Both the position numbers and the translations under genes were made by a program. From the IMG/VR virus record IMGVR_UViG_3300035661_000005: a stretch of 64,000 nt of DNA; one strand, 5' to 3'. Below, in pieces: positions 489 through 63,145 of this stretch. Source of the DNA: a virus (taxonomy: Duplodnaviria > Caudoviricetes). The notes below the pieces were generated by a model. The model worked only from the letters and a program-made list of their open reading frames with translations, searched no databases and had not been told where the DNA came from. Within the stretch, counting starts at the first letter, position 1; each line of letters opens with the position of its first letter.

Positions 489-3443
489 ATGGCAACGCCC
501 GAGCTGACGTTCTACCTGCGCAGTCTGACGCGCTTCATTTACTTCGTGACGGACGAGGAGGACCGTTTCCTCGTGCGCCTTCACCAGACGCTCAGGGACT
601 TCGCGCGGCGGACCTGGGTCTACAACGCGGCCTTCGGCCTCGTCCCCATCGAGTCCCTCATGAAGGACTGGACGGAGCGGACGCACACGGAGGACCCCGA
701 GACGCTCAACATCCACGGGGCGCTCGTCAAGATGTACAAGGACGATCCGAAGAAGGAGCAGAACTTCTACATCGTCACGGACCCCGAGCGCTGGCTCGCG
801 GACGCTCACGTGCAGCGGCGGTTCCTCAACCTCGCGCACCAGGTCCACCAGGACAACCGGGTCATCAAGATCGTCATCTTCGTCGGGACGCGCAAGTACG
901 TCCCCGAGAAGCTCGCCCGCTACGTGGAGGTCGTCCACGACAAGGGGCTGACGGACGAAGAGATCCTCGGGCTCGTGGAGGACGCGGCCAAGCACCTCAA
1001 GACGCCGGTTCCGGAGAACGCGCAGAAGCTCTTCAAGGGGCTGACGGCGTACGAGATCAAGATGGCCATCGGCCAGTCGATCATCGCAACGAAGAAGGAC
1101 CAGGTGAACCCGCGTCGGATCGACCCGACGATCGTGGCGGACTTCCGCCGCAAGCAGCTCCGCAAGTCCGACCTCGTGCAGTACATCGACACGGATAACA
1201 TGAGCTTCGACCAGGTCGGTGGCGCGGACCGCTTCAAGGAGTGGGCGAGGAAGGCGCGGGCCACGTGGTCGGATCGCGGCCAGAAGTTCGGGCTTCGTCC
1301 GCCGAAGGGTGTCCTGTGCGTCGGCGTCTGGGGGTGCGGTAAGTCCCTCTCGGTCAAGGCGCTCGGCGCGGCCTGGGGGCTCCCCGTGGTCCAGCTGGAG
1401 ATGGGACGTCTGCGTTCGAGCGGCGTCGGTGACTCGGAGGCCAACGTCTACCGCGCCTGCCGCATCATCGAGGCGGCTGCCCCGTGCGTCACGGGGGAGA
1501 CGGAGGTCACGCTGGCCGATGGGACGACGAAGCCCATCGAAAGCTTGTGGCAAACGTACGTGGCCGGCTCTACGGAACCCCTCCGCGTCCAGTGCTGGAA
1601 CGAGAAGTCGTTCCGGGTCGAGACGACGGGCGTCCGTGCGATCACGCGACGAGAGGCGGAGGCGTTCCGGGTCGAGGCCGCCCACGGCTTCTACCTCAAT
1701 GCCACCGCGAACCACCAACACTATGTCATGCGCGGTGGGATGCCCGAGTGGGTCCGTACGGACGAACTTCAGCCCGGGGACATGATGGCGGTTCCGACCG
1801 CACAGCGGGCGAGTGCTCAAGACGAAGGTGTCGACCCGGACGCGGTACTCCTTCAGTGCCACCCCTCTGGGATGCGTACCTACGGGCCCACCAACGAGCT
1901 TCGTCGGGGTGGTGGGGGCTACAGGGATGCGGTCGTCCCGAAGCTGCCTGTGAAGTGGACGTGGGATCTCGGGCGGCTCCTCGGTCTCATCGAAGGGGAT
2001 GGGTTCATCGGGGAGAAGGACGGGATCGGATTCACGAACACCTCGCCAACGCTCCTCAGTCGCTTCGAGGGCTTCATGGAGGGCCTGTTCGGCTTGAAGC
2101 CGTCGCGCAACGAACACAAACAGGGCAAGATCCCCAACCTGCCGGGGTTGAGCGACGATCCCCAGTTCAAGCCGTGCTGGACGAGCGTGGTGCAGAACCA
2201 GCTCGCAGCCGAGTTCCTCCGCAACGCCCGTAGGGCGATTCTCTCCGCACCCGTGGGAGTGCGGGCAGCGTTTCTCGCCGGATGGATCGACGCGGATGGG
2301 TGTATCGGACCCAACAAGGTCACCCTCACGGTCAAGCATCCGAAGATGTGGGCGGAACGGCAGCTCCTCGCCCGCCAGGTCATCCAGTCGTTGGGGGTCG
2401 TCCCGTCGAAGTTCGGCTACCCCAACCTAGAGATCACGGGGTCTCGGGCGGTCCGTCTCGCCTCTCTCATCGGGGAGTTCCTCATGGAGAAGAGTGCCAA
2501 GGCGGCCCTCGTCTCCTCGTCGGAGATCGGGTTCGATCGGAACATGGGTTATGCCTGTGGGCAGGTGCTCGCCCAGGCACGGGCCGCCTCCGGTCTCACG
2601 CTCGCGCAGATCGGGATGTCGCCGAGTACGGTGTGGAACCACGAGAACGGCAGGGTTCCGATCAGCAGGCGGCACCTGTACGCCTACATGGAAAAGCTCG
2701 GCGATGCGGGCCAGGATCTCAGGCGCCTGAGTCGCGCCGAGTGTGAGTGGATCAAGGTCATGAGCGTCGAGCCCATCGGCGTGCAGACCGTCTATGACTT
2801 GGCCTGTGAGGGCGAGGATACGCACTCGTTCATCGCAAACGGGCTCGTCACGCACAACTGCATCGTCTGGATCGATGAAGCTGAGAAGAGCCTTTCGGGC
2901 GCGGCTTCGTCCGCGCAGTCGGACGCGGGCACGACCAACCGCACGATCGGCATCCTCTCGACGTGGCTCCAGGAGACGGACGCGCAGGTCTGCCTCGCCA
3001 TGACGGCGAACAGCCTCAAGACCCTCCCGGTCGAATTCGTCAACCGCATGGACGAGCGCTTCTTCTTCGACATCCCGGACGAGGAGGGGCGCATCGAGAT
3101 CCTGAAGATCCACCTGCGGAAAGCGGGTCAGGATCCGGACCAGTACGACCTCGCCACGCTCGCCGACAAGGCTCAGGGTATGGTCGGACGCGAGATCGAA
3201 CAGGCGATCGGTGCGGCCATGATCGAGTCGTTCGCCCAGGACAAGCCGGCCCTCGACACGGACATCCTGACCGAGGAGCTGGCGCACAAGCCGCGCATCA
3301 TCAAGACCATGGCCGACGAGGTGAAGGAGATCGTCGAGTGGGTCGGGTACGATCCGGATGCGAACGACGGCATCCGTGCCCGGTTCGCTTCGAAGCCCGA
3401 TCGCAAGTCCGGCGGCCTCAAGCTCGTCTCGCCCCATGAGTGA
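489..3443 (+). CDS. Ycf46-like AAA+ ATPase precursor containing an intein
   Basis: Walker A GVWGCGKS, Walker B IVWIDEAEK, sensor MTAN, R-finger NRMDERFFFDIP; SFDQVGGADRFKEW typical of Ycf46 family. Confidence 0.9.
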   Translation: MATPELTFYLRSLTRFIYFVTDEEDRFLVRLHQTLRDFARRTWVYNAAFGLVPIESLMKDWTERTHTEDPETLNIHGALVKMYKDDPKKEQNFYIVTDPERWLADAHVQRRFLNLAHQVHQDNRVIKIVIFVGTRKYVPEKLARYVEVVHDKGLTDEEILGLVEDAAKHLKTPVPENAQKLFKGLTAYEIKMAIGQSIIATKKDQVNPRRIDPTIVADFRRKQLRKSDLVQYIDTDNMSFDQVGGADRFKEWARKARATWSDRGQKFGLRPPKGVLCVGVWGCGKSLSVKALGAAWGLPVVQLEMGRLRSSGVGDSEANVYRACRIIEAAAPCVTGETEVTLADGTTKPIESLWQTYVAGSTEPLRVQCWNEKSFRVETTGVRAITRREAEAFRVEAAHGFYLNATANHQHYVMRGGMPEWVRTDELQPGDMMAVPTAQRASAQDEGVDPDAVLLQCHPSGMRTYGPTNELRRGGGGYRDAVVPKLPVKWTWDLGRLLGLIEGDGFIGEKDGIGFTNTSPTLLSRFEGFMEGLFGLKPSRNEHKQGKIPNLPGLSDDPQFKPCWTSVVQNQLAAEFLRNARRAILSAPVGVRAAFLAGWIDADGCIGPNKVTLTVKHPKMWAERQLLARQVIQSLGVVPSKFGYPNLEITGSRAVRLASLIGEFLMEKSAKAALVSSSEIGFDRNMGYACGQVLAQARAASGLTLAQIGMSPSTVWNHENGRVPISRRHLYAYMEKLGDAGQDLRRLSRAECEWIKVMSVEPIGVQTVYDLACEGEDTHSFIANGLVTHNCIVWIDEAEKSLSGAASSAQSDAGTTNRTIGILSTWLQETDAQVCLAMTANSLKTLPVEFVNRMDERFFFDIPDEEGRIEILKIHLRKAGQDPDQYDLATLADKAQGMVGREIEQAIGAAMIESFAQDKPALDTDILTEELAHKPRIIKTMADEVKEIVEWVGYDPDANDGIRARFASKPDRKSGGLKLVSPHE
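1485..2858 (+). mobile_element. Intein (458 aa) with LAGLIDADG homing endonuclease and XRE-like HTH
   Basis: Starts CVTGETEVTLADG, block B NATANH, LGLIEGDG and FLAGWIDADG motifs, ends VYDL...HSFIANGLVTHN followed by Cys+1. Confidence 0.95.
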
Positions 3444-13098: not shown

Positions 13099-15357
13099 AT
13101 GTCGAGGACGTCCACCCCACACTGCTCGTTCTGCAACAAGCCTCGGAACGAGGTGAAGGCCCTCATCGGCAACGACGAGGGTCCGTACATCTGCAACCGT
13201 TGCCTGGAGAACGGCTTCCGGGCGCTCTCGAACGCCCGGAAGGCCGCCGCGCAGACGTCCGCCAAGGACGAGCCCCTCCGCAAGCCGCGGGAGATCAAGG
13301 CGACGCTCGACCAGCACGTCATCGCCCAGGACCGGGCCAAGATGGACATCGCGGTCGCCGTCTACAACCACTACAAGCGGCGCGAGGCGCTCAAAGCGGG
13401 CACCGACCTCGGCGGGGTCGAGATCGCCAAATCGAATATCCTCTTGATGGGGCCCTCCGGCTGCCATCGGCGGGGCCAACGCATCCTCATGTACGACGGA
13501 TCGCTTAAAGCGGTCGAAGACGTGCGGGTGGGGGACTGTGTGATGGGGCCTGACAGCACCCCTCGCAACGTCCTGGAGCTGCACACCGGCACGGAAGAGA
13601 TGGTCGAGATCACCCCGACCAAGGGGGCCCCCTGGGTCGTCAACAAGGGGCACATCTTGACGGTCTTCGAGTACGACAAGGGTCTCGTGGACGTGTCCCT
13701 TCGGGAGTGGTTGGGCTGGTCGGAGAAGCGTCGCACGGAGTCGAAACTCGTGCGCGTGGGCGTGGACTTCCCCCTCTCCGGGAAGACTCTTCCTATCGAG
13801 CCCTACTTTCTCGGGGTTCTGCTCGGAGACGGGTCGTTGGCCCCCCATGTTCGAGTGACCTCGGCGGACTCTGAGATCGTGGCGGCTGTTCGTGCCTGCG
13901 CCCAGGACTTCGGGCTCCAGGTCAACTCTTACGCAAAGGCCACCACTTCGGCCCGTGACTACGTTCTGGCTGGAACGAAGGGCAAACGGAACCCGGTGGC
14001 CGAAGCCCTCGACTCGTTGGGCTTGTGGGGCAGCCGTAGCGAGAACAAGTTCGTCCCTCAGTCGTACCTCACGGCATCGCGTGAAGATCGCTTGGCTCTT
14101 CTCGCTGGTCTGATCGACACCGATGGCTGTTACCGGGACAAGCCCCCTTGCTTCGATTTCACCAGCAAGTCGGAGAAGCTCGCCCAAGATGTCGCCTTCC
14201 TGGCCCGCAGCCTGGGCTTTGCGGCGTATCCCCGGCCGTTCATGAAAGACGGTACGGCGTACTTCCAGATGAGTATCTCGGGGGACATCGACACGATTCC
14301 GGTCAAGGTGGAGCGGAAGAAGGCTCGGGCTCGTCACGAAAATGGGCGGGACGTTCTGCGGGTCGGATTCACGACTCGCGACCTCCCGGCTGAGGAGTAC
14401 TTCGGCTTCGTCCTCGACGGCGACCATCGGTACCTGCTTGACGACTTCACCGTGACCCACAACACCGGCAAGACGGAGATCGCCCGCACGATCTCGAGGA
14501 TGCTCCGGGTGCCTTTCTTCGTCGGTGACGCCTCCCGACTGACCCAGGCGGGCTACGTCGGCGACGACGTGGAGTCCCTCCTCCAGGGGCTCGTGCAGGA
14601 TGCCGACGGAGACGTGGAACGCGCCCAGTGGGGGATCGTCTTCATCGACGAATTCGACAAGCTGGCCCGCAAGTCGGGCCGCGGTGCCACGGGCTACCGT
14701 GACGTCTCTGGGGAGGGTGTGCAGCAGGCCCTCCTCAAGATCCTCGAAGGCTCGAAGATCGTCGTCCCCCGCGGCATGGGGCGGGTCGCGATGGGGTCCG
14801 GTAGCGGGGACGTGTTCGACACCTCCAACGTGCTCTTCATCTGCGCGGGTTCGTTCGCGGGGATCGAGGAGGTCATCGAGAAGCGTGTGAACAACCGGGC
14901 GAGCCTCGGGTTCGGCGCCGCGGAGCGGAAGAAGCTCACCAAGACGGACATCTACCTCCATGTGACCGAGGATGACGTCCTGGAATTCGGCCTCATCCCG
15001 GAGCTGATGGGGCGTCTGCCGGTCTTGACGACGGTCGTGGATCTGACCGAGGATGAGATGGTGCGCATCCTGACGGAGCCGCGGAACGCGATCATCAAGC
15101 AGTTTCAGGCGCTTTTCTCAATCGACGGTATCGACCTCCAGTTCGACGAGGCAGCGCTCCGGGCCATCGCCCGGGAGGCCAAGATGCGGCCCACGGGCGC
15201 CCGTGCCTTGCGCTCCATCGTGGAGAAGGTGCTCCAACCCTACTGCTTCGACGCCCCGAGCGACCCGACCATCAAAGCGCTCCGGGTGACGGAGGAGACG
15301 GTGAACGGGACGGGCAAGGCGATCGTCGTGACCCGTGAGGCTGCCGCCACGGGTTGA
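13099..15357 (+). CDS. clpX: ClpX ATP-dependent unfoldase precursor containing an intein
   Basis: C4 zinc-binding domain CSFC..CNRC, V(I)AQDRAK, GPSG/TGKT Walker A, LTQAGYVGDDV, FIDEFDK, RDVSGEGVQQALLK, GAR.LRSIVE. Confidence 0.97.
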   Translation: MSRTSTPHCSFCNKPRNEVKALIGNDEGPYICNRCLENGFRALSNARKAAAQTSAKDEPLRKPREIKATLDQHVIAQDRAKMDIAVAVYNHYKRREALKAGTDLGGVEIAKSNILLMGPSGCHRRGQRILMYDGSLKAVEDVRVGDCVMGPDSTPRNVLELHTGTEEMVEITPTKGAPWVVNKGHILTVFEYDKGLVDVSLREWLGWSEKRRTESKLVRVGVDFPLSGKTLPIEPYFLGVLLGDGSLAPHVRVTSADSEIVAAVRACAQDFGLQVNSYAKATTSARDYVLAGTKGKRNPVAEALDSLGLWGSRSENKFVPQSYLTASREDRLALLAGLIDTDGCYRDKPPCFDFTSKSEKLAQDVAFLARSLGFAAYPRPFMKDGTAYFQMSISGDIDTIPVKVERKKARARHENGRDVLRVGFTTRDLPAEEYFGFVLDGDHRYLLDDFTVTHNTGKTEIARTISRMLRVPFFVGDASRLTQAGYVGDDVESLLQGLVQDADGDVERAQWGIVFIDEFDKLARKSGRGATGYRDVSGEGVQQALLKILEGSKIVVPRGMGRVAMGSGSGDVFDTSNVLFICAGSFAGIEEVIEKRVNNRASLGFGAAERKKLTKTDIYLHVTEDDVLEFGLIPELMGRLPVLTTVVDLTEDEMVRILTEPRNAIIKQFQALFSIDGIDLQFDEAALRAIAREAKMRPTGARALRSIVEKVLQPYCFDAPSDPTIKALRVTEETVNGTGKAIVVTREAAATG
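13462..14463 (+). mobile_element. Intein (334 aa) with LAGLIDADG endonuclease in the ClpX P-loop
   Basis: GPSG|CHRRGQRILMYDG ... LGVLLGDG, LLAGLIDTDG ... YLLDDFTVTHN|TGKT. Confidence 0.95.
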
Positions 15358-41849: not shown

Positions 41850-43174
41850 TGGCCTCCCTGGCAGAGCGTGTGGCGACCCGGTTCCTTCAGGCGGACGCCA
41901 TCGGGGATCCGAAGGAGCTGGTTCAGCCCTTTGCGAGCCTGGTCGACAGGCTTGCTGTGCATCGAACCGAGGCGGAGACGGCGCTCCCCTTCCTGCGACG
42001 GCTGCCCGACAACCTCCTGAGCAGTCTGAGCTTCTCGGATCGGCTCAGGGTCCGAGAAAGCGTCCCGGGGCTCGCGGAAGCCCTGAAGGTGGCCCATGAG
42101 GCATTCGGGGCCCTGACTTACCTGATCCCGAAGTTCGCGTACCCGGGCAGCCAACTCTTCCTCTCGATCATTCAGACGTACGCGCTGCCGGCGTCTCTGC
42201 GGAAGAAGATCGAGATGGCCTCCCGGACCTACATGAAGACGACCCGGCTGCGTTGGCCGAACGCCGAAGGTCTCTCGGGTGAGATCGCCCGCATCGAGGC
42301 GTACCTGAAGTACCTCGCCCTCTACGAGTCGCACCTCAACTACGCGAAGGAAGCCATCGCAAAGGGGAAGGGGCACACGGAAGAGGGCGCGGAGGCGACG
42401 AAGGTCCGCGTCGGCAGCTTCACGCTGGTCAACACGGGCGGCTTCTCGGCGGAGGTCATGGGCAACGTCGCGGAGGCCATGAAGAAGGCCGAGGCGCTGC
42501 TCAAGTCCAGCGGGTTCGGCATCGTCTGCTACGGCGACGTGCAGGTCACCAACACGATCTCGAAGGGGAACGTGCTGGCTTTCTACCTGCCCAGCAAGGA
42601 CGAACTGTTCATCCGGGCCAACTTGAAGCCGACGTCGGACAGCATCCACATCATCCTGCACGAGCTGGGGCACCGTTTCGAGGCGAAGAAGTTGTCCAGC
42701 CGAGCGGGTGACCTCCGACGCCTCTACAGCCTCATCAATGGGCAGGAGTACACCCGCAAGAAGGAGATGCGAGCCAAGAAGCCCCCGATCGGTGACAAGC
42801 TGGTCGACAAAGGCAAGACCTACGAGGTGGCGGGCTACGACGTCGGCCGCAACGGGCTCATGGTCGTGCTGAAGCAGGAGGGCGACCCTCGGATCCAAGC
42901 CAAGGTCTCGCTGGAGGGCTACCTCAGCCGGAAGGGCGAGGGGGGCGCCCGCAACGTCGACGAGACGCCGGACTTCAAGGGCTTCGTCACGGAGTACGCG
43001 AAGAAGACCCCCTCCGAGAACTTCGCCGAGATGTTCGCCTACTACTGCATGGGGCGCCTGCCGGTGCTCCAGAGCGTGGCGTTCGAGGAGCTGTGTTTCG
43101 GTTCGTCCGACCCGCCGGGTGAGAGCATCTTCACGGCCCGGCGGGTCGTGGCCCGCTGGATCATTCAGATGTAG
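41846..43174 (+). CDS. Zinc metallopeptidase, lethal factor-like (paralog 3, divergent)
   Basis: IILHELGHRF, YAKKTPSENFAEMF; tags ERVATRFL and RRVVARW; true start 41846. Confidence 0.8.
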   Translation: MMASLAERVATRFLQADAIGDPKELVQPFASLVDRLAVHRTEAETALPFLRRLPDNLLSSLSFSDRLRVRESVPGLAEALKVAHEAFGALTYLIPKFAYPGSQLFLSIIQTYALPASLRKKIEMASRTYMKTTRLRWPNAEGLSGEIARIEAYLKYLALYESHLNYAKEAIAKGKGHTEEGAEATKVRVGSFTLVNTGGFSAEVMGNVAEAMKKAEALLKSSGFGIVCYGDVQVTNTISKGNVLAFYLPSKDELFIRANLKPTSDSIHIILHELGHRFEAKKLSSRAGDLRRLYSLINGQEYTRKKEMRAKKPPIGDKLVDKGKTYEVAGYDVGRNGLMVVLKQEGDPRIQAKVSLEGYLSRKGEGGARNVDETPDFKGFVTEYAKKTPSENFAEMFAYYCMGRLPVLQSVAFEELCFGSSDPPGESIFTARRVVARWIIQM

Positions 43175-53297: not shown

Positions 53298-54164
53298 TCA
53301 GGGCTTGACGCAGTAAGTCCAGCAATAGAGCCCGCTGCCGGGGTTCGCCTCCCACTTGCCCGTCGCGAGGTTCAGCTGCCACCACTTGCCGAACGAGTCC
53401 GTCGAGACGGAGTTGATGCAGTCGGCCGGGCCAGGCGTCAGGGCCGGGTACTCGAAGGTCGATCCGAGCGCCCACCCGCATGTGTTCGGCAGACCCGACA
53501 TCGTGTCGTAGTGGTAGGGCAAGAGGCTGTCGATCTGAGCCTTCGTCGCCGGCTGCCACCCCGACCCGACCCAGCTCGTACACATCGCCGCCGCGTTGCT
53601 GGCCGGCTTGGTCATCGGACTGAGGGCCGGCTTGGCCGTCCAGTTGATGCCGAGCTTGGCGTCGTGGATGGCCGCGATGGCGGTGGAGGGACCGCTCGGG
53701 TTCGGGATGGTCACCGACGAGAACCTGGTCGGTGCCGTACAGGCGCAGGTCAGGGTGCCGCTGGTGGCGTTGCAGGAGAGCCCACAGGGGTCGGCCACGG
53801 CATCCCAGGCAGAGCCCGTCGTGTTGCACTTCTCCGGGACGAGTCCGTTGCAGCGGACCTCACCCGCCATGCAGGCCGGAGGCGGCTCCGTGTCGACCGT
53901 CCCGGTGTCTTTGGCGTCCGGGTCGCTGGTGTCCAGAAGGCCCGTGTCGGGCGTCTGCGTGTCCGGTTGCTGGGTGTCCGTCCCCGAATCGGCCTGGGGG
54001 GCCGTGTCGGTGGAGGTGTCGGTGGAGCCGTCGCTGGTCTCCGCGGGGCTATCGCTGGTCTCCGCGGGGTCGGCGTCGTTGGGGTTTTGCTGGGGGAACT
54101 CGAAGTTGGCGCCGGAGCACCCGACCATCAGGACGGTCAGCAGGGGGAGGCTGGAGTACTTCAT
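53298..54164 (-). CDS. Lipoprotein with D/T/P-rich linker, Cys-rich repeat and DUF1566/Lcl-like domain
   Basis: Lipobox LMVGC; C.AG..RC.G...C; IHDAKLGINW...AMC...W. Confidence 0.8.
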   Translation of the reverse strand: MKYSSLPLLTVLMVGCSGANFEFPQQNPNDADPAETSDSPAETSDGSTDTSTDTAPQADSGTDTQQPDTQTPDTGLLDTSDPDAKDTGTVDTEPPPACMAGEVRCNGLVPEKCNTTGSAWDAVADPCGLSCNATSGTLTCACTAPTRFSSVTIPNPSGPSTAIAAIHDAKLGINWTAKPALSPMTKPASNAAAMCTSWVGSGWQPATKAQIDSLLPYHYDTMSGLPNTCGWALGSTFEYPALTPGPADCINSVSTDSFGKWWQLNLATGKWEANPGSGLYCWTYCVKP

Positions 54165-54368: not shown

Positions 54369-55361
54369 ATGTCGAATGTGGTCACCAGTTGGGACGAGTC
54401 CGTGGACAGCACCGCCGGTCTACACACGCGGGCGACCCAGATCATGCTCCGCGCCTTCGCGGAGGAGTGCGGCCCCGAGGCGACCGCTCGGGTCTGGAAC
54501 AAGGTCCTCATCGAGTCGGCGAGGGAGGCGGCCCAGGCGGCGACGCCCTCGGCTCGCAAGCGGCTCCTGAACAACGACACCCGGGCTCGCGGGGCGCTCC
54601 GGACGGCGATCCCCGAGATGTGGGGCAGCTTCGAGATCGTCGATGGCGGGTGCCTCAAGGCCAAGGCCGCCCTGAGCAGCAAGGTGGCCGATCCGCCGAA
54701 GCCCACGGCGCCGAAGCTCACGCCGATGGAACAGAGCCTCCTCCTGGCCGCGGTCAAGGCGGGTGGCTTCACCTCCGACGCGGTCAATACGGTCAGCCTC
54801 GACGCCAACGACGCCGACCTCCTCCGCAAGGCGGCCGAGGAGTCCGAACAGGAGGCCCGGCACGACGCGGACTTCACCCGGTCGATGTGCCGCAAGGCGG
54901 ACGAGATGCTCGCCGAGTACAGCAAGCTCGTCGGCGACGCCCTCTGGTCCAAGCCGATCATCGTCGAGACCGTCACCGGCCCGGACAACAAGGTCCGCCG
55001 GATCATCTTCGTCCGCTCGGCGACGGCGCCGCTGTTCCGGACGCACGGCCCGATCGTCAAGCACGACTTCCGCGCCAACGGTAAGCCGGTCAACATCAAC
55101 CACGAGAGCGCCTACCCGCAGCTCGACGGCCTCAAGCTGATCCGGTCGAGCGTCCACGTGAAGAAGACCCATGAGTACTACGTGAAAGGTCTCAAGTACC
55201 AGGACGGCATGTACTTCAAGGGCTACTTCGTGGTCGACGGCCAGGAGATGGAGCATCTCGCCCGTTACTACCAGGTCCGGGGCAACATGGTCTTCGCGAT
55301 CACCCAGCAGGAGTACCAGGATCTGGTGAACCGCGTGGCCGGGGGCTACGACAAGACCTGA
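54369..55361 (+). CDS. Hypothetical protein
   Basis: Very strong codon bias. Confidence 0.85.
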   Translation: MSNVVTSWDESVDSTAGLHTRATQIMLRAFAEECGPEATARVWNKVLIESAREAAQAATPSARKRLLNNDTRARGALRTAIPEMWGSFEIVDGGCLKAKAALSSKVADPPKPTAPKLTPMEQSLLLAAVKAGGFTSDAVNTVSLDANDADLLRKAAEESEQEARHDADFTRSMCRKADEMLAEYSKLVGDALWSKPIIVETVTGPDNKVRRIIFVRSATAPLFRTHGPIVKHDFRANGKPVNINHESAYPQLDGLKLIRSSVHVKKTHEYYVKGLKYQDGMYFKGYFVVDGQEMEHLARYYQVRGNMVFAITQQEYQDLVNRVAGGYDKT

Positions 55362-55380
55362 TCCGGTGTACTGGGTCGAG

Positions 55381-55485
55381 GTGAACACCCTCGACCATCA
55401 GCTCGTTCGAGCTACCCGCAAACAGAAGCGGAAGCCTGCGGACACGTGGGAACGCCTCCTGGCTGACGACCTGGGGAGCCTGTAA
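55381..55485 (+). CDS. 34-aa peptide ending DTWERLLADDLGSL
   Basis: Translated manually; CGGTGTAC element and GAG SD upstream; carries the acidic tag. Confidence 0.6.
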   Translation: MNTLDHQLVRATRKQKRKPADTWERLLADDLGSL

Positions 55486-55625
55486 GACGCCCCCGTGCGG
55501 GCAGAAGTACCGGACGGCCCGGTGCCATTCATCCGGGAGGGCCGGATCGAATTCCTGGACGACTCTGAGCACAAGCTAGCGGATCAGACGGTCGATCTGC
55601 CCGAGGTCGGTGTAGAATCGAGGGC

Positions 55626-55889
55626 TTGAGCGTCAAGCCCTGGCCCCGTGAGCCCCGCACCGTCGACTGCTTCTCGGGGGCGACCTACCCGCCCGGGGAG
55701 CCTCTGCGGGACACGCCGGGCACCTTATCCAACGTCCGAACGTACGAGAACCCATGGCCGAGTCCACCGGCCCTCTGCAAGCACGGGGAGGGCTCGTGTG
55801 AGGCTTGCGGTACGACGGTCCGCCGGGACACCCTGCACACGACTGAGGGCGGCCGTGGGGCCGTTGGGCGGATCCTCAAGCGGAAGTGA
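55626..55889 (+). CDS. Small Cys-containing protein
   Basis: CKHG.GSCEACG; CGGTGTAGA upstream. Confidence 0.55.
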   Translation: MSVKPWPREPRTVDCFSGATYPPGEPLRDTPGTLSNVRTYENPWPSPPALCKHGEGSCEACGTTVRRDTLHTTEGGRGAVGRILKRK

Positions 55890-55929
55890 CCCGCGAGGAC
55901 GAAGGCTTCGATAAGTAGCGAGGTGTAGG

Positions 55930-56097
55930 ATGAAGATCGAGCCCGGTCAGATGTGCATGAACTGCTCGGATAGGCCCGCCACGGTGGCGCAGGGCACGGT
56001 CCCCCTCTGTGCCGAGTGCGCGGGGGTGGCGGACGGGCGGGGGGTCAAACTCCGGAAGACGAAGCATCCGAAGCCTGACCTCGTGAAGTGCGACTAG
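55930..56097 (+). CDS. 55-aa Zn-finger protein
   Basis: Translated manually: CMNC...LCAECA. Confidence 0.6.
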   Translation: MKIEPGQMCMNCSDRPATVAQGTVPLCAECAGVADGRGVKLRKTKHPKPDLVKCD

Positions 56098-56288
56098 GCG
56101 GTGCTTGCCACTGCCGCCAGGATCCGCTTCGGCAGCTCGCGCATGAAGGCGCGACGGGCGGCCGAGAGGAACTGACGGTTCCTCTTCGAGTAGCCGCGCT
56201 CGTTCAGGTTGTCCGGGATCCAGCCGCAGAGACCACACGTCTCGGTCGCCGTCGTCTGTCCGCAACAGGGGCAAATGGGCATGCTCAT
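56094..56288 (-). CDS. Zn-ribbon protein
   Basis: CPCCG...CGLCG; GGAGG SD. Confidence 0.65.
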   Translation of the reverse strand: MSMPICPCCGQTTATETCGLCGWIPDNLNERGYSKRNRQFLSAARRAFMRELPKRILAAVASTA

Positions 56289-56324
56289 CCGACGTTCCCT
56301 CCTGACAAAGGACGACGGTTCGGA

Positions 56325-56717
56325 TCAACCGTCGTCCTTCGTGAGTCGTTCGAAGTCCGTCTGCGGGGGAGGTTCCGCCTCCGGAGCCGGTGGGGCGGTC
56401 TTCTCGATGACCTTGAAGTGGGGTATGGGAGTGGGCTGGAAGGTCAGCCCGACCGTCTCCTGCAACATCCTCTCTGCAACCTGTCGCTGTACCGCGTGCG
56501 CATCTCGAATCGCCTGGACGGCGTTCATGAGCGAACGGTTGAGGTCGAGCTGGTTCCGCACCGCCAGCTCAAGCCGCTCGACCCGGTTCGCGAGCTGCGT
56601 CACCCGGTTCGGCATGTGATCTGGCATCACGGCGCGGCTACGCCACACCCAGTACGAAATGAGACCGTAACAGGCGAGCAGGGTGGCGTTGATGATCACC
56701 GAGGCGGTGGGGCTCAC
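56325..56717 (-). CDS. Membrane-anchored coiled-coil protein with acidic tag
   Basis: N-terminal TM; ends TDFERLTKDDG. Confidence 0.7.
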   Translation of the reverse strand: MSPTASVIINATLLACYGLISYWVWRSRAVMPDHMPNRVTQLANRVERLELAVRNQLDLNRSLMNAVQAIRDAHAVQRQVAERMLQETVGLTFQPTPIPHFKVIEKTAPPAPEAEPPPQTDFERLTKDDG

Positions 56718-56820
56718 GGTTCCCTTCTACACCGTTGATCGCCGGTCTGGTGCCTTGTAGAAAGGGCATGGGCGTCTACCTCTAGAGCTGGATCCGCTTG
56801 CGCTGGTGTAAGGGACAGGC

Positions 56821-57402
56821 GTGCTGATCGACCTTTCACGCAAGCCGATTCTCGTCATTCCGCACGAAAGCCCAGGACATCTCGTGGTTCGGACCATCGG
56901 GAACGCCGAGGTCACGGGCCTTGTCTCCAGGCTCTACGAAGCGGACAGCCGCTGGACCAAGGCCCTGATGCAGGTGGTCGATCCCGGGGGCACCTTCAAC
57001 CGGGGCGCGCTCACCTGCTACGAGACCCGCGTCCCTTGCGAGGTCCCCTTCAACCGGGACGCCGCCAGCAGCGCCGAGCAACCGATCCTCCCGAACCCCT
57101 ACGAGGTGGCTACTGTTTTCGTAGACGCGGTCACCAAGTTTCATGGCCTGTGGCGGATCGCGATCCAGATGGAGCCGTGCCGCAACAAGAACGGGCACAT
57201 CTACGAGTGGGTCTGTACTTGCACCCATATCGGGGCGCAGGTGGGGACACCGCTCGTGTCCTGCGTCTTGAGGGACCTGGAGACGCTCGGCTTCAGGGAG
57301 ACGCCGAAGAAGGAAATCTTCCCTATCAACCGGCATCTCAAGCAGACGGCAGAGGGCGGTCAACCCGAGACGGACTGGGATCGTCTCAAGAGCGACGAGT
57401 GA
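56821..57402 (+). CDS. Hypothetical protein with acidic tag
   Basis: Ends ETDWDRLKSDE. Confidence 0.8.
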   Translation: MLIDLSRKPILVIPHESPGHLVVRTIGNAEVTGLVSRLYEADSRWTKALMQVVDPGGTFNRGALTCYETRVPCEVPFNRDAASSAEQPILPNPYEVATVFVDAVTKFHGLWRIAIQMEPCRNKNGHIYEWVCTCTHIGAQVGTPLVSCVLRDLETLGFRETPKKEIFPINRHLKQTAEGGQPETDWDRLKSDE

Positions 57403-57439
57403 AGCGCGTGATCCTGACTTCGAAAAACTCCCGAAGAAC

Positions 57440-57691
57440 ATGACCCCCGAAACGCTCAAGCTGATGATCGAGCGCACGGAGGCCAGTCGGACGTACAAGG
57501 AGGCGATGCGGACCGCGTACTACACGAGCGTGATCAGCTTGATCTGGCTGTGGTTCGGTACGACGACGGGCCAGATCGTCATCGCTATCGTGGGGTCTCT
57601 TGTTCTGCAGGCGGCGGGCTGGCGGTACTGGCGTCTGAATCGCCATCTGACGGAGCTGACGGGCGAGACTGACGAACCAGGTCGCTGGTGA
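57440..57691 (+). CDS. Small two-TM membrane protein
   Basis: Two hydrophobic segments. Confidence 0.6.
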   Translation: MTPETLKLMIERTEASRTYKEAMRTAYYTSVISLIWLWFGTTTGQIVIAIVGSLVLQAAGWRYWRLNRHLTELTGETDEPGRW

Positions 57692-58277
57692 CCTGATCGA
57701 GAACGCGCTGGCTCGACTCAGCCAAGGGGGTCGGGCTTGCCAGCTCGGAGGCGAGCCGGTCGATCATCGCCTGGGTCGGCGCGACCTTGTCGGCGTCATC
57801 CACGTAAGGCGGGAGGGGGAACGGCGTGCCACCCGTTTTGAGGACGTGGATGCGGAGGACGCGGGAGCCCTTCTCGTTGTGCGGGGGGAAGACGAGGGAG
57901 GCGGTGAGGCCAATGCGCTCCATGAGCACGCGGAGGCCCTTCGCCTCTTTCGGGTCACCGTCCGGCCAGCCTTTGTCTCTGGGCCACACGCGGCCATCCC
58001 AGCCGAGCGAAGCGAGAACGGTCAGGGCATCGCCCATGGTCCGCTCGTTGAGCGGGATGGCCCAGTCCATCGATCCCGAGTGCTCGTCCACGTAGGACTT
58101 GAGCAGGATCCCCTGGATGAAGAGCTTGCCCTGGATGATGTACCCGAGGAGGGGCAGGAGGCGGTAGATGCTCGCCTGCATCACGGCCTTCCCGATCACG
58201 GTCCCGTAGGCGCGATCGGACTCCGGGGTGTTCCGTTGGTAGTCCTTGATCGCCTTCTCGATCTTCTTCGTGATCAT
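57585..58277 (-). CDS. Hypothetical protein
   Basis: Codon bias; 3' end overlaps the convergent gene. Confidence 0.75.
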   Translation of the reverse strand: MITKKIEKAIKDYQRNTPESDRAYGTVIGKAVMQASIYRLLPLLGYIIQGKLFIQGILLKSYVDEHSGSMDWAIPLNERTMGDALTVLASLGWDGRVWPRDKGWPDGDPKEAKGLRVLMERIGLTASLVFPPHNEKGSRVLRIHVLKTGGTPFPLPPYVDDADKVAPTQAMIDRLASELASPTPLAESSQRVLDQVTSDLVRQSRPSAPSDGDSDASTASPPPAEQETPR

Positions 58278-58280
58278 CTT

Positions 58281-58562
58281 TCATCTCCTTGCGCGGCGTA
58301 CGGCTTCGTCGAATCGAGAGTCCTTCTCGCGGCGCCGTATCAGCCGCACCTCTCGCTGGTCGTAGAATTCCTCATCTTCGTCCTCGATGTCCACGACGAC
58401 CGGCGGAGGGTCGTACCTCTCCGAGGCGGGGTCACCATCGAACGGGGACCACCCGAGAAGGCGGTCGAAAGCAGACGGGATCCGCTTCCGTCCCAGCTCC
58501 TTCTTCTTGGCCTTTTCCATCGCCTTGCGCTCGATGACCCGGTGGTCCGTGTTGTCGATCAC
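58281..58562 (-). CDS. Hypothetical charged protein
   Basis: Internal PSAFDRLLG; GGAG SD to the next gene. Confidence 0.7.
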   Translation of the reverse strand: MIDNTDHRVIERKAMEKAKKKELGRKRIPSAFDRLLGWSPFDGDPASERYDPPPVVVDIEDEDEEFYDQREVRLIRRREKDSRFDEAVRRARR

Positions 58563-59032
58563 GGTGGCGTACTGCCAGTACTCGCCCCCTCAAGGCATTT
58601 AGGGCAGGTGACCTTCCCGCCAGCCTGCAGCCGATCCAGGAAGAAGTCATCCCTGCATGGGGAGTAGGCGCTGGCCCCCTCGACCCCATTGACGACGTGA
58701 ACCAGGCCGTCCTTGATGGCGGTGGCGATGGGCTTGTCGACCCGCTCCAGGATGAGGACCCCCTGTCCGGCCTTGGCGCGGTCCAGCGTCACGAGGGGGT
58801 AGACGTAGGTCTCGTAGCGGGGGCGCTCGCCGAAAGACCACATCTCGTACCCCAGCTCGTAGACGGGGACCTTGTCGGGAATGTGTGGGGAACCCGAGCC
58901 CGAGGTCAGTCGTATGTAGTCTGGCGGGCCGTACCGACCGGGGAGCAACGCCGCAACCCGGGACGACCGCTCGAAAACCGTCGATGTCCCCTCCAGGCGG
59001 AGCACTATCTGGTAGAGGGGTCGATTGCGCAT
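58559..59032 (-). CDS. Hypothetical protein
   Basis: C-terminal VTCPKC; TGGTGTAAA upstream. Confidence 0.6.
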   Translation of the reverse strand: MRNRPLYQIVLRLEGTSTVFERSSRVAALLPGRYGPPDYIRLTSGSGSPHIPDKVPVYELGYEMWSFGERPRYETYVYPLVTLDRAKAGQGVLILERVDKPIATAIKDGLVHVVNGVEGASAYSPCRDDFFLDRLQAGGKVTCPKCLEGASTGSTPP

Positions 59033-59062
59033 GGAACCAATGGGGCTTTACACCAAGCCCGG

Positions 59063-59090
59063 TTGATCTGGGAGCCCCCCGACCTGTAGA
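59063..59090 (+). promoter_or_regulatory. TTGATC-N16-TGTAGA promoter, ATG 6 nt downstream
   Basis: Exact motif. Confidence 0.8.
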
Positions 59091-59096
59091 GAAGCT

Positions 59097-59264
59097 ATGA
59101 CGACCGAGCGCCCCTACGTCAGCAGTGACGAGCAGATCGGTGCCGAGATCGAGGCCGAGATCCAGGAGATGGCGGCCGAGGTCCGCGCCCAGGAGGCGTA
59201 CGAGGCCGCGAAGGCTGCCGAGCAGGAGCGCATGGCCGCCGAAGCGAACACCGCCCTCAAATAA
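59097..59264 (+). CDS. 55-aa acidic helical protein
   Basis: Translated manually (MTTERPYVSSDEQIGAEIEAEIQE...); leaderless promoter. Confidence 0.75.
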   Translation: MTTERPYVSSDEQIGAEIEAEIQEMAAEVRAQEAYEAAKAAEQERMAAEANTALK

Positions 59265-59559
59265 CCGGCTTGCGGGGCGGGGGCTTAAGAGGCTCGGGTT
59301 TGCCGAGGAAGTCTTGCCCCATGAGGCTACGATCCTTGATGGCGACCGGCTTGGCGGCCGGTCGCTCCTTGTCGAGGTCGTGTTTGTCGTAGATTTGGTC
59401 AGCCCAGGTCCGCTGCTTCGGCGAGAGTCCGGCGACGTTGCCCGAGGCGACCCGATCGTACATCGCCTGGAAGCTGGACCTCTCCGAAGGCGTGAGCATC
59501 CCGTCGGGGAGGCTCAACAAGGCCCGGAGCACTTGGAGGTCGGTCTTCTTCTTGGGCAT
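59257..59559 (-). CDS. Small protein with LSPKQ module
   Basis: SFQAMYDRVASG...LSPKQRTWADQIY. Confidence 0.7.
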   Translation of the reverse strand: MPKKKTDLQVLRALLSLPDGMLTPSERSSFQAMYDRVASGNVAGLSPKQRTWADQIYDKHDLDKERPAAKPVAIKDRSLMGQDFLGKPEPLKPPPRKPVI

Positions 59560-59684
59560 CACATCACCGGAAGGACAGGTTGAGGTTCGTTCGGATCGTT
59601 TCGCTGCGCAGGATCTCATGCAGCCCTGAATCGGTCACGCGATCGTCTACACCGGAGGGGCTGCCCTCGGTGTAAGAGATCTCT

Positions 59685-60941
59685 GTGGGCTACCTAAACC
59701 CCCCGCTGAGCCCGACCAGCTTCCTGCTCTGGCTCGGGGACACCAGGATCAAGTCTTGGACATGGAAGCACACCCATGTCAACCGAACGGAGGAACCCGT
59801 GACCCAACCCGTGACGCCAATGCCGGTGAAAGAGCCGGAAGTACCAAACCTCCTGCTGGAGGCGTTCAACCGCAAGATCGAAGAGGATGTTCGGCCGACG
59901 CTGACCCTCCTGGAGACAATTCGAGATCAGCTCGCGACCTATGAGGCCAAGGTCAAAGAGGATGCGAAGCAGAAGGCCCTCGGAGCGATGCTCGCGGCCA
60001 TCGGCCAGCCGATCAAGACGGCGGCTCCGTCCACAGAGGTCGAGAAGGGCTTGCGGTCGAGCATCTTCTCGCTCCTCGAACAGCTGGGTGGTGCGCCCCC
60101 TCTCGTAGAGGCCGTCTCGGACAAGGCTGAGGCCGAGACGGTCCGTGCGGATGTCAGCCCGGAAGAGGATCAGAGGCAAGCCGACCCCGACCTTCTCAGC
60201 GAGGAGCTGGATGCCCAGCTGTACCTCGAAGAGATCGATCGGTTCGGTCAGGAGGCCCACCAGCTCGTCAAGGCGCGTGCCGAGTGTGAGCTGCAGTGGC
60301 TCGTGGCTTCGGTACGGTTGACGATGTGTCGGCTTCCCGTGCAGAACGAGTACTACGGCAAGCTCTCGAATGCGATCCCCATCCTGTCCGCCATCCGGCG
60401 CCAGATCGGGGTCACGGACTTCACGAAGGGGCTGGCTCAGGGGCAGACGTTCCCCTGGGAGCAGATCATCCGTGATAGCGCCCAGGCGATGGCCAAGTTC
60501 GACGCCATCGCCGAACTTGGCCACGAGCCGAAGCCGAAACCGAAGACGCAGGGCACCCAGGGACAAGCGGAACCCACGAGCTACGCGTGGCCGAAGCTCC
60601 CCTCGCTCCGCTCCAAGCTGCAGGGTAAGACGTTCGCCATTGTCGGGGGCATCGCGGTCAACGAGAAGACCGCGCTCATCAAGAAGCGCTTCGGCTTCGA
60701 CGTGGAGTGGCTGGAGATCGACCAGGGGGCCGCCCGGCAGACCGACGCCATCTCACGGAAGATCCGCAGCGGCACGGTCGGGGCCGTGATTCTGCTGGAG
60801 TCCTTCATGCCGCACAAGGCCACGTCGGCCGTCTCCGACGCGTGCAACGCGGCCCACGTGCCCTGGGTTTACGGTGGTCGTTGCGGCGTCGGAGCGATCG
60901 AGGGTGCGCTCAACAGCCTGGAGGACAAGCTGGCGAGCTAG
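59685..60941 (+). CDS. Protein with C-terminal DUF2325-like domain (start uncertain)
   Basis: FAIVGG, VILLESFMPHK, ACNAAHVPWV..GRCG. Confidence 0.75.
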   Translation: MGYLNPPLSPTSFLLWLGDTRIKSWTWKHTHVNRTEEPVTQPVTPMPVKEPEVPNLLLEAFNRKIEEDVRPTLTLLETIRDQLATYEAKVKEDAKQKALGAMLAAIGQPIKTAAPSTEVEKGLRSSIFSLLEQLGGAPPLVEAVSDKAEAETVRADVSPEEDQRQADPDLLSEELDAQLYLEEIDRFGQEAHQLVKARAECELQWLVASVRLTMCRLPVQNEYYGKLSNAIPILSAIRRQIGVTDFTKGLAQGQTFPWEQIIRDSAQAMAKFDAIAELGHEPKPKPKTQGTQGQAEPTSYAWPKLPSLRSKLQGKTFAIVGGIAVNEKTALIKKRFGFDVEWLEIDQGAARQTDAISRKIRSGTVGAVILLESFMPHKATSAVSDACNAAHVPWVYGGRCGVGAIEGALNSLEDKLAS

Positions 60942-61630
60942 TCGTCCAATGCGAAGCCTCGGGTGAGGATGCGCATCGACTTCACCGAGGGGGCCTTTTT
61001 GCGGCGATCCTTGAGGAGCGGCGCCGGCCATCGGCCTGGGACCGCCTCCTCGAAGAGTGACGGGGGCTGTTTCAAGTTGGCTACCCCCTCCGTGAAGGCC
61101 ATTCGTGCCCACACGTCCCCATCAAGAACGGCGATCCCGGCCAGGTACTCCTGCTCCACCTTGATGGCGGCCTCGTGGATCGCCTCTGCCTCCTGGAGGG
61201 TTCGCTTGCGGAGGTGGATCTTGTTCCGCCCGCCGGGGATGACCCCAGAGAGGACGATGATCCGGTCGTAGACGGGACTCGTGTCGAGGCTGAAGATCGC
61301 CGGGTCCTGCTTGATATTGAATCGCTTGGCCGTGGTCAGGGTGGCCCCCACAGCCATCGCAGCGGCCCTCTGTGCGTCCCATGTCGTTTCGTCCACCCCT
61401 CGGGGCACCCGGGGAGTCCCATCCAACCTAGCGCCGACAGTGCCGTAGCAATTGTAGCGATCGCAGGCGTAGAAGCGGCCGAAGCGGCCCCTCTCCAGGT
61501 GCGTAGGGCCGCCACAGTCGGGGCACGCGACGACGCCTTGGTAGGTCACCGGCGTGTTGTTCATCTGCCGCCGGATGACGTTCCACCACTTCGTCGAGTA
61601 CTGCCGTTCTACTGTGACGGCTCCGGGCAT
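60938..61630 (-). CDS. Protein with topoisomerase-type C4 Zn finger (DUF3268-like)
   Basis: CPDCGG...GRFGRFYACDRYNC.GTVGA..DGTP. Confidence 0.7.
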   Translation of the reverse strand: MPGAVTVERQYSTKWWNVIRRQMNNTPVTYQGVVACPDCGGPTHLERGRFGRFYACDRYNCYGTVGARLDGTPRVPRGVDETTWDAQRAAAMAVGATLTTAKRFNIKQDPAIFSLDTSPVYDRIIVLSGVIPGGRNKIHLRKRTLQEAEAIHEAAIKVEQEYLAGIAVLDGDVWARMAFTEGVANLKQPPSLFEEAVPGRWPAPLLKDRRKKAPSVKSMRILTRGFALDD

Positions 61631-61750
61631 GGTTCCTCGACCCGGGTGATGGTCGGCAGGGGCGTTCCACTGATCTGCCGTGGATGACTCCGAGCACGGT
61701 CCTTATCCATGCCCCGTCTACAGGATGAGTCACGGCTGGATCGATAAGAC

Positions 61751-61776
61751 CAAAGCCCCGCGCGAGCGGGGCTTTG
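61751..61776. terminator. Bidirectional intrinsic terminator
   Basis: CAAAGCCCCG/CGGGGCTTTG 10-bp stem. Confidence 0.8.
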
Positions 61777-61796
61777 CATGCTGTCCGGCGACCCGG

Positions 61797-61904
61797 TCAG
61801 CTCTTCGCCGCCGACTTCTTGGCAGCGGTCTTCGCGGGAGCCTTCTTCGCAGCGGGAGCCTTCTTCGCAGCGGACTTCTTCGCGGGAGCCTTCTTCGTGG
61901 CCAT
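61797..61904 (-). CDS. 35-aa Ala/Lys histone-like miniprotein MATKKAPAKKSAAKK...
   Basis: Perfect SD AAAGGAGGTG, own promoter and terminator; below the ORF-track cutoff. Confidence 0.85.
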   Translation of the reverse strand: MATKKAPAKKSAAKKAPAAKKAPAKTAAKKSAAKS

Positions 61905-61932
61905 GTGGAATCACCTCCTTTCGATCTGGTTT

Positions 61933-61960
61933 TCTACACCGGGTGTGGAGAACCTGTAAA
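61933..61960 (-). promoter_or_regulatory. TTTACA-N16-TGTAGA promoter
   Basis: Same spacing and -10 as the TTGATC class, with a sigma70-like -35. Confidence 0.7.
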
Positions 61961-61964
61961 GCGT

Positions 61965-62387
61965 TTAGTCGTCAGCGAGGAGGCGATCCCAGGCGGTATC
62001 CGCCTCCCTGGGCTCCGGACTCGCCTCGATGGGGTACCACCTGTGGCCAGCCCTCCGAGCGTCGGCCCAGGCGGTGAACGAGACGACGTGGTAGTCGAGG
62101 CCCTCGGATGGCCAGTAGACTCGATCCGGGGGTCCACCGACCTCGTCCGGCTCGATGTCCGCGGCGTCGTAGAAGAAGATCCACGCGCCGTTGGTGATCC
62201 GGATGAAGACGGGGTTCGCCTCGGCGGGCTTGATGTTTGCCCTGCCAGCCGCGATCTCGATGAAGCCATCGGTAAACCGTTGGGCCAACTCCTCCGCGGC
62301 GATCGAGTTCTTGGTCAGGAACAGGATCGACCGGCCCAGGAGAAGATCGGCGACGGCTAGCTCGAACAGTTTGCGATCTAGGCGCAC
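61965..62387 (-). CDS. Hypothetical protein with acidic tag
   Basis: Ends DTAWDRLLADD; TGGTGTAGA upstream. Confidence 0.75.
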   Translation of the reverse strand: MRLDRKLFELAVADLLLGRSILFLTKNSIAAEELAQRFTDGFIEIAAGRANIKPAEANPVFIRITNGAWIFFYDAADIEPDEVGGPPDRVYWPSEGLDYHVVSFTAWADARRAGHRWYPIEASPEPREADTAWDRLLADD

Positions 62388-62396
62388 GATCCAGGT

Positions 62397-63008
62397 CTAC
62401 ACCAGGTTGTCGTCCCACCGATCGAGGAAGTCGCTGTTCGCCAGCCGTTCGAAGTCGGTTGGGATGGATCGACGCTCCAGGGCGTGGGGCACTTCCCTGT
62501 TCGCGCTGATACGGCTCGTCCGCGAGGGGTCCTCCGTGACCCGCATGTGAGGCTCGGGGATCTGCCTGCGAGGCTCCAGTGCTTGCCGCGCACGCTCGGC
62601 GGGGGTCATGTCCCGGAAGGCACGAACATTCCCCACGACCTGGCCGTCGCTCGGCCCCTCCAGGCGCTCCCGTCGGAACGTGCTCGGCGGCGGGCTCTCC
62701 CGATCGACTCGGAAGCGGCCACGGCGTTCGGCTGGGCCGGCTGCGACATCCAGCCGCAGGTCGTCCATGTCGAAGGAGATCTCGTCGGGCACGGGGGTAT
62801 CGGGCGGGAAGTTAGTGACGAGGTTGGATACCCAGGCGTCCTCGCTCATCGGTGGCACACGCCCAAGGTCTTCCCTGGCGGTCACAACTCGGATAGGGAC
62901 TCCAGGGGTGACGAGGCGCGACTGCTGCATGGCAGTCGCTGCCGCCAGCTCCCGTTGTGCGGAAGCCGACAGTAGCATCGCTGGATCCAGCGGAGGTAGC
63001 TTCGGCAT
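62397..63008 (-). CDS. Disordered Arg/Pro-rich protein with acidic tag
   Basis: Ends PTDFERLANSDFLDRWDDNLV; probable start MPKLPP at 63008. Confidence 0.65.
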   Translation of the reverse strand: MPKLPPLDPAMLLSASAQRELAAATAMQQSRLVTPGVPIRVVTAREDLGRVPPMSEDAWVSNLVTNFPPDTPVPDEISFDMDDLRLDVAAGPAERRGRFRVDRESPPPSTFRRERLEGPSDGQVVGNVRAFRDMTPAERARQALEPRRQIPEPHMRVTEDPSRTSRISANREVPHALERRSIPTDFERLANSDFLDRWDDNLV

Positions 63009-63145
63009 ACCCTTCGACCTACGGCACAGGCTGCGCGAAAGCAACACATAACCTGTGGAAATCGTACACGTTTTCAAGGGTCGGCGTGGAAGGGTGCGAG
63101 ATCGTTAGTGAAAGTTCTTGGATTCCTCTGGTATGGAGGTCCCCC

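Follow-up and report, generated by a model that had tools for sequence, protein, structure and literature searches.

A short acidic tryptophan tag shared by unrelated proteins of an uncultivated huge phage looks like a portable docking motif

Introduction

Why should several otherwise unrelated small genes of one phage finish with nearly the same dozen residues? The question is raised by the region between 55.4 and 63.1 kb of IMG/VR record IMGVR_UViG_3300035661_000005, a 64,000-nt stretch of Caudoviricetes DNA (the window, meaning the whole stretch analysed). An earlier note made from the letters alone had reported there five proteins with a C-terminal peptide of the type TDFERLTKDD or TAWDRLLADD (the tag), and had proposed that it is a short docking helix which plugs many proteins into one hub. 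All five instances were recovered in this region, and the observation of the tag is confirmed and proved stronger than the earlier note had it. The analysis below favours, with a probability of about 0.6, the reading of the tag as a portable short linear docking motif by which diverse proteins would be tethered to one receptor.

The source is an uncultivated huge phage which infects bacteria and comes from mat and sediment samples. Logan contig L001 lengthens the window by 2.95 kb. The relatives compared were the contigs L003, L010, L012, L023, L024 and L025 and the 416-kb IMG/VR record G001; L023 is syntenic with the window at 51.8–61 kb, with protein identities of 30–60%.

The tag in the window

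The consensus of the window copies is P-x-[TS]-[DA]-[WF]-[DE]-R-L-x-x-D-[DE], about 12 residues long, in which the Pro lying 2–4 residues upstream is a part of the pattern. A 12-position position-specific scoring matrix (PSSM), derived from family tails of other phages only (the family is described below), was used to score all frames. The following carriers lie in the window:

55381..55485, plus strand: 34-aa peptide, a basic stretch and the tag DTWERLLADD (55441–55470), 12 residues from the stop; PSSM 19.8 bits
56325..56717, minus strand: 130-aa protein with a hydrophobic anchor at the N-terminus, then a Pro-rich linker and C-terminal TDFERLTKDD (56331–56360)
56821..57402, plus strand: 193-aa family protein with a predicted beta-rich core, helix 168–177 and tag helix 185–191, TDWDRLKSDE (57370–57399)
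58281..58562, minus strand: 93-aa protein with an internal tag, SAFDRLLG (58446–58475), after a basic stretch
60942..61060, plus strand: start-less 39-codon frame ending in RRRPSAWDRLLEE and a stop; PSSM 23.9 bits
61965..62387, minus strand: 140-aa orphan open reading frame (ORFan) with C-terminal tag TAWDRLLADD (61968–61997); PSSM 26.1 bits, the top score of the window
62397..63077, minus strand: low-complexity protein of 226 aa (or 193 aa from the ATG at 62978) with TDFERLANSD (62430–62459), 18 residues from the stop

The internal SAFDRLLG was already noted earlier and is indeed present. Two weaker matches proposed at the same time, ETSYNALLMDALGDDET with a stop ending at 25506 and DSYSRLL inside 5637–5966, do exist but have no statistical support. 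Conversely, two copies were added, namely the RRRPSAWDRLLEE that ends at 61060 and an eighth copy, VPSAWDRLLVDETE, at window-equivalent 66164 (L001:12684), 2.2 kb beyond the window. The frame with VPSAWDRLLVDETE has a G+C content at third codon positions (GC3) of 0.72–0.85 from about 65,900 to 66,260 and is probably coding. The GC3-favoured frame switches near 65,900 within this open reading frame (ORF; window-equivalent 65700–66280, L001:12231–12800), which is either a frameshifted gene or a gene with a later true start.

A chance origin of these copies is contradicted by several counts. In a six-frame scan of the 64 kb, [WFY][DE]RL occurs only 12 times; seven of these sites lie between 55.4 and 62.5 kb, and six are within 20 codons of a stop. 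In the GC3-based set of 108 genes, six copies of [WF][DE]RL occur, five of them within 25 residues of the C-terminus (Fisher p = 2.8e-4), and these five terminal occurrences compare with 0.087 from residue shuffles, so that the tag is enriched at C-termini over shuffled controls. The full ten-residue pattern did not appear in any of 300 shuffles, and five PSSM sites reach 16 bits or more in the window together with its extension, where 200 codon shuffles give 0.11.

The Arg codons of the tag vary among the copies (CGC, CGT, CGG and CGA), as do the Leu codons (CTC, CTG and CTT); the tag is therefore conserved as a peptide and not as DNA, and a DNA-level repeat was rejected on this codon comparison. 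The likeness among the copies ends at about 12 codons, beyond which the flanks show no relation, and on either strand every copy is in frame.

The carriers were earlier described as otherwise unrelated, and the profile hidden Markov model (HMM) of the 193-aa family agrees with this description. Compared with every six-frame ORF of the window, it matches the 193-aa protein at 6e-55 and reaches only the tails of the frames 55330–55482, 61968–62396, 65699–66277 and 60629–61057 and, more weakly, 56328–56726; the 34-aa peptide is its second-best match, again by the tail only. None of the tag carriers has a Pfam or PHROGs match, and the 140-aa carrier found no homologue but itself among 5.8 billion proteins. 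The tag usually sits behind Pro-rich or charged linkers, and the 20 residues preceding each copy are 70–90% polar, Pro or Ala.

The frame that ends at 61060 differs from the other carriers in having no start: no ATG, GTG or TTG lies between the stop of the preceding DUF2325 gene (59685–60941) and the frame end, and no obvious slippery heptamer was seen at the end of the 418-aa DUF2325 ORF that would allow a −1 frameshift into it. This frame is the exact antisense of the last 40 codons of a zinc-ribbon gene (60938–61630, minus strand). At the same position in L023, a 185-aa gene ending in PSVWDRLLGTGFDD and a stop follows the DUF2325 homologue. A tagged gene was probably lost here by gene replacement, the frame being its 3′ relic. 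In G001, no homologue of the DUF2325 protein was found.

The 193-residue family and its neighbour

A homologue of the 193-aa protein, at 34% identity, keeps EPETAWSRLVDDDP at its end, although the alignment over the 30 residues before it is poor. Searching 1.84 billion representatives with a profile extended the family to at least 83 clusters, almost all of which end in the tag. Members are joined by full-length homology from the N-terminal MLIDL..P...P.E....VVRT through the beta-rich core, which the window protein shares; the terminal pattern of the family, [TNS]-[AV]-W-x-[RA]-[LI] with an acidic run within about nine residues of the end, is found in PETDWDRLKSDE followed by a stop.

In an alignment of 45 sequences, mostly 25–40% identical to the window protein, only M1, R24, E68 and the tag Trp, W186, are invariant. 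A Trp is retained in the last 26 residues of 92 of 95 members, at a median of nine residues from the end, and is replaced by Phe in one. The tail logo of these 95 members reads P(−4), [TNS](−2), [AVL](−1), W, [DEST], R (60) or A (14), L (60) or I (23), [LRT], [DE], D, D, and the conservation is 0.55 in the tail columns against 0.31 in the preceding 30 residues. Members are found on contigs of up to 281, 416 and 452 kb, where their genes adjoin those for NAD salvage, NADAR, kinase and nucleotidyltransferase proteins.

The AlphaFold2 model of the 193-aa protein has a confident beta-rich core (pLDDT 88.5), followed by the helix 168–177, a linker and the short tag helix 185–191. The model gave no credible fold match in PDB, AFDB clusters, VIA wide, BFVD or ESM Atlas (best Z 3.5, TM < 0.4); a protein atlas feature search returned no usable match for the family, and neither Pfam nor PHROGs holds a model of it. 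A literature search found no description of the tag motif or of the family. The family thus appears to be undescribed, and the tag, which is not a peculiarity of the source phage, appears to be its ancestral tail.

One conserved neighbour of the family gene deserves mention:

57585..58277, minus strand: 230-aa protein with a GWDGRVWP motif

The motif GWDGR.WP..D.GWP is invariant in this protein across four divergent phages, and its gene adjoins the family gene, or is separated from it by one small gene, in the window, L010, L012 and L023. The protein has no Pfam match, and its model (pLDDT 73) has no fold match. This neighbour could be regarded as a candidate partner of the tag.

The tag in related phages

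Outside the window, PSSM sites of at least 16 bits number four in L023 (18 kb), four in L024 (15 kb) and three in L025 (10 kb), and in each of these contigs the tag is carried by several different, non-homologous ORFs. Those of L023 code for 90, 176, 154, 107 and 185 aa. Because they are not homologous to the window's carriers despite the synteny, the genes that bear the tag differ from phage to phage within one sub-clade. Phe-containing and internal variants also occur in L023.

The C-terminal location claimed for the tag holds for five window ORFs, but it is not strict, since the relatives use N-terminal and internal positions as well. A 141-aa ORF of L023 has one N-terminal and one internal copy, and L025 carries an internal copy and a terminal one. 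A 149-aa protein of L023 (2024–2473, minus strand) opens with MSHWDRLDEDVFEE, and its L024 homologue (13556–14089, plus strand; 37% identity) has SWERLLDEG and TAWEHLLE near its start.

In bacterial L7/L12, the N-terminal domain holds the protein on the ribosomal stalk, and the C-terminal domain binds the translation GTPases. The L023/L024 protein pair matches PF00542, the L7/L12 C-terminal domain, at its C-terminus with 39.8 and 28.8 bits (cut-off 25.9), the matches covering positions 8–37 (L023) and 10–36 (L024) of the 67 profile positions. The matched segments are thus like a helix pair of the L12 C-terminal domain, and the tag occupies the position where the L12 anchoring domain would be. 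Genes for L7/L12 are known from huge phages (PMC7162821). No PF00542 match was found in G001.

Upstream elements and genomic context

The element GGTGTA[ACG] has 37 sites in the window against 8.1 expected, a 4.5-fold over-representation. The statement that most carriers lie behind it holds for four of the five C-terminal carriers, and the sites concerned are:

56805..56811, plus strand: GGTGTA[ACG] before the 193-aa gene, beginning 16 nt before the start codon
55365 (plus strand), 56727–56733 (minus strand) and 62397–62403 (minus strand): GGTGTA elements of the other carriers
472, 5621, 13080, 28290 and 59669: further GGTGTA sites

The 34-aa peptide starts with GTG, 16 nt after the GGTGTAC at 55365, and GGTGTAG lies 16 nt upstream of the starts of both the 130-aa protein and the 140-aa ORFan. 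In general, GGTGTA begins 15–16 nt (mode 16 nt) before start codons; the interval contains no Shine-Dalgarno sequence, and the same spacing is found in five related loci (L003, L010, L012, L023 and L024). Because of this position, the element may be a clade-wide promoter for leaderless mRNAs or else an unusual translation-start signal.

A second class of upstream sequence, TTGATC-N17-GTAGAT-like, ends about 5 nt before the ATG; from its letters it looks like a sigma-70-type promoter, which would give leaderless transcripts too. Examples are located as follows:

Upstream of 12809, 15388, 44400 (minus strand), 46036, 53298–54164 (minus strand) and 59097: TTGATC-N17-GTAGAT-like sequences

The carriers are located among small accessory genes beside those for a 2H phosphoesterase and the DUF2325 protein. 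Between two tagged genes, at 61797–61904 on the minus strand, lies a 35-aa ORF composed almost wholly of Ala, Lys, Pro, Ser and Thr, with a GGTGTAG element 36 nt upstream. The G+C content is 64% throughout the window, which also codes for GT51 transglycosylase and HExxH peptidase-like proteins. Window DNA was found in microbial-mat and sediment metagenome runs, all of them DNA runs, and a 200,835-bp contig carries one window protein. No close relatives were found among cultured phages by megablast and tblastn, nor in IMG/VR for the window's own proteins, nor by pattern scan of JGI metagenomes and GTDB genomes. The related contig L003 contains at 9166–11280 a 704-aa TnpB/Cas12f-like gene (HTH_OrfB_IS605 and Cas12f1-like_TNB).

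Comparison with known systems

In its possible way of working, the tag may have its nearest parallels in the W-acidic motifs read by kinesin-1 light-chain TPR domains and in the terminal Trp of the McdB carboxysome adaptors. The former likewise combine a key Trp with acidic flanks and join many unrelated proteins to one positively charged pocket. McdB has an invariant Trp among its last residues, where other aromatic residues work less well; the Phe variants of the tag parallel this (PMC11321042). The consensus differs, in that the tag reads [TNS]-[AV]-W-[DE]-R-L-L-D-D with an obligatory Leu at +3, whereas the kinesin and McdB motifs read L/M-[DE]-W-[DE] or R-[VI]-W-P-D. The carriers, unlike kinesin cargo or McdB, are phage proteins, and no kinesin or microcompartment shell was identified in the 64 kb examined. 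W-[DE]-R-L with acidic flanks also matches the loose kinesin W-acidic and Atg8-type [WFY]xx[LIV] patterns, as a resemblance only.

Hydrophobic-acidic ends that join different proteins to one hub are familiar from the T4-like clamp-binding C-terminal peptides, the bacterial QL[SD]LF motif and the DDDIPF tip of SSB. The tag shares this logic, but its order is hydrophobic and then acidic, it has neither a Gln nor an LF or PF terminus, it is used N-terminally too, and its carriers are not recognisable replication proteins. The sliding-clamp consensus (QL[SD]LF or [ST]LDFL[FY]) is absent from the family logo, which has no upstream Gln and no LF or FL[FY] core. The T4 capsid-targeting sequence and the cargo-loading peptides of encapsulins are short portable terminal peptides on unrelated cargo, as the tag is on its carriers; the tag has no link to head genes, and its sequence is unrelated to theirs. 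ClpX reads short terminal signals such as the LAA end of ssrA and the LRVVK tail (XB) of SspB. The source phage does encode an AAA+ machine of this type, but the acidic end and the non-terminal positions of the tag do not fit the ClpX C-motifs. The XB tail is closer to a second, basic tag of this genome, R-V-V-x-R-[FY]-L, than to the acidic one. On these sequence comparisons the tag looks like an undescribed docking tag.

Discussion

The tag has the properties expected of a short linear motif: it is short, is conserved amid divergent flanks, lies in flexible regions, occurs on unrelated proteins and does not depend on position. The earlier proposal of a short linear docking helix on unrelated proteins is well supported by the C-terminal enrichment, by the invariant Trp of a family of at least 83 clusters, by the non-homologous tagged ORFs of three related phages and by the predicted short helix behind Pro-rich linkers. 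In the favoured model, P-x-[TNS]-[AV]-W-[DE]-[R>A]-[LI]-[L]-[DE]-D-D would serve as a portable docking peptide. It is predicted to fold into a two-turn helix that displays Trp(0), Leu(+3) and Leu(+4) on the same side, with two to four acidic residues coming after it. The Trp-Leu face would enter a hydrophobic pocket with a basic border on a single shared receptor, and varied accessory proteins would thereby be tethered at the same site. The 193-aa family protein would be the ancestral client; in one sub-clade, which includes the source phage, the tag would have reached many small, fast-evolving genes by copying or by evolving anew. On the L7/L12-like protein of two relatives it would take the place of the ribosome-anchoring N-domain and so act as an anchoring module.

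Several results weigh against this model. The tag helix was predicted with a pLDDT of only 62–71, so it could pack on its own core. L003, L010 and L012 each have a single site of at least 16 bits, which is the family member itself, and in G001, searched whole with one strict DNA pattern, a terminal tag was found only on the family member; the picture of many clients is thus limited to one sub-clade. The sequencing-run search met no RNA run containing window sequence, and most of the carriers are ORFans. The relatives were retrieved via the family gene, which limits the inference from co-occurrence for any candidate receptor. No binding partner was identified for the tag; a PDB search with the tag profile returned only Colicin S4 at E = 1.1, a chance match. 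For the receptor, the translation apparatus or another conserved host machine is preferred, at somewhat less than even odds, and a phage platform such as the family core or the conserved 230-aa neighbour comes behind it; the N-domains of the phage ClpX or AAA+ proteins seem improbable, and a receptor of some other kind equally so.

A receptor that is both phage-encoded and local, set against the broader docking model as an explanation of its own, was judged rather unlikely. The tails could be chained to the beta-rich core of the 193-aa protein, with the other carriers joining or capping such chains, or they could be bound by the 230-aa GWDGRVWP protein. The family protein is the sole universal carrier, its extreme N-terminus and core are conserved along with its tail, and the pairing with the 230-aa gene, seen in the window and three relatives, has the same layout on one further contig; yet neither of the two models matched a known peptide-binding fold, the 230-aa homologue was not found on the L003 and L024 contigs, and gene adjacency may mean co-expression only. 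A slightly lower standing was given to the earlier suggestion that the tag is a degron or tether for one of two AAA+ proteins of the phage, by which the carriers would be unfolded or turned over at a set time:

13099..15357: intein-containing ClpX, with a LAGLIDADG homing-endonuclease domain in the intein
489..3443: Ycf46-like AAA+ ATPase, also with an intein holding a LAGLIDADG homing-endonuclease domain

That both genes are in the window and lie behind the same GGTGTA element as four of the carriers speaks for this suggestion, and so does the distant but family-bearing G001, which encodes a ClpX with a zinc finger and further AAA+ proteins, although this co-occurrence is a single case. ClpX C-motifs 1 and 2 require a non-polar or basic free C-terminus of the LAA or RRKKAI kind, and acidic C-termini, as in ssrA-DD, block their recognition. 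The tags that are terminal end in D, E or G, and the other copies are followed by 4 to 60 more residues or are N-terminal, unlike a terminal degron engaged by the pore. With its acidic end and its sometimes non-terminal position, the tag is a poor match for a terminal degron, and its invariance in a conserved, well-folded family protein suggests a stable function. ClpX as a receptor through its N-domain is possible.

Two further explanations were given still less weight. A processing site for lethal-factor-like zinc proteases (29439–31094, 31091–32773 and 41675–43174) would account for the arrangement [KR]2-4-x0-2-P-x-x-[WF] just before the tag in the 34-aa peptide, the 93-aa protein, the relic, the 226-aa protein and an 83-aa ORF of L024, and HExxH proteases, known from weak Pfam matches, are nearby, one of them being conserved in L003. 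Neither the family consensus nor the 130-, 140- and 193-aa carriers have the basic cluster, though, and what is conserved is a Trp-Leu-Leu-acidic helix and not a cleavage-site pattern, so that such processing appears very improbable. Least probable, and largely refuted, is that the copies arose by chance, are leftovers without function from duplications of the family gene's 3′ end or are a translated DNA or RNA element. The copy at 60942–61060 does resemble a gene relic, and under the strong GC3 bias the copies come to have similar-looking codons; but the shuffle and PSSM statistics exclude chance, the limited in-frame likeness with its synonymous differences and unrelated flanks argues against an element or leftovers, three other phages have non-homologous carriers, and the Trp is invariant across sequences at about 30% identity.

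The second, basic tag, R-V-[VA]-x-R-[FYW]-L, is likewise real in the window and has copies in the relatives:

19576, 21222, 29471, 31156, 32642, 35505, 36317, 37094, 41867 and 43142: basic tag copies in the window
L003:16651 and L012:3196, 4669 and 8903: basic tag copies in relatives

The L003 peptidase homologue has it at the N-terminus, and in G001 and L012 a PolyA_pol-family protein bears it C-terminally. A more speculative extension, which we hold to be doubtful, is that the high-GC huge-phage clade addresses its proteins by two portable peptide codes, ..AWDRLLDDD (the acidic Trp tag) and ..RVVARFL (the basic one), the acidic one anchoring changing orphan effectors and the L7/L12-like factor-binding module on the host translation apparatus or on a phage-built platform. 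It may even be that these two amphipathic helices, being opposite in charge, bind one another.

Docking peptides common to many proteins are a major route by which eukaryotic viruses rewire cells, and very few are known in phages. The tag described here connects a conserved huge-phage protein of unknown fold with a turnover-prone set of orphan genes, and the finding of one receptor would give a place of action to dozens of proteins that are beyond homology annotation. It is so short that it could be used directly as bait, and engineered systems could employ it as a portable tether; its presence on an L7/L12-like protein makes the re-equipping of host translation by huge phages directly testable.

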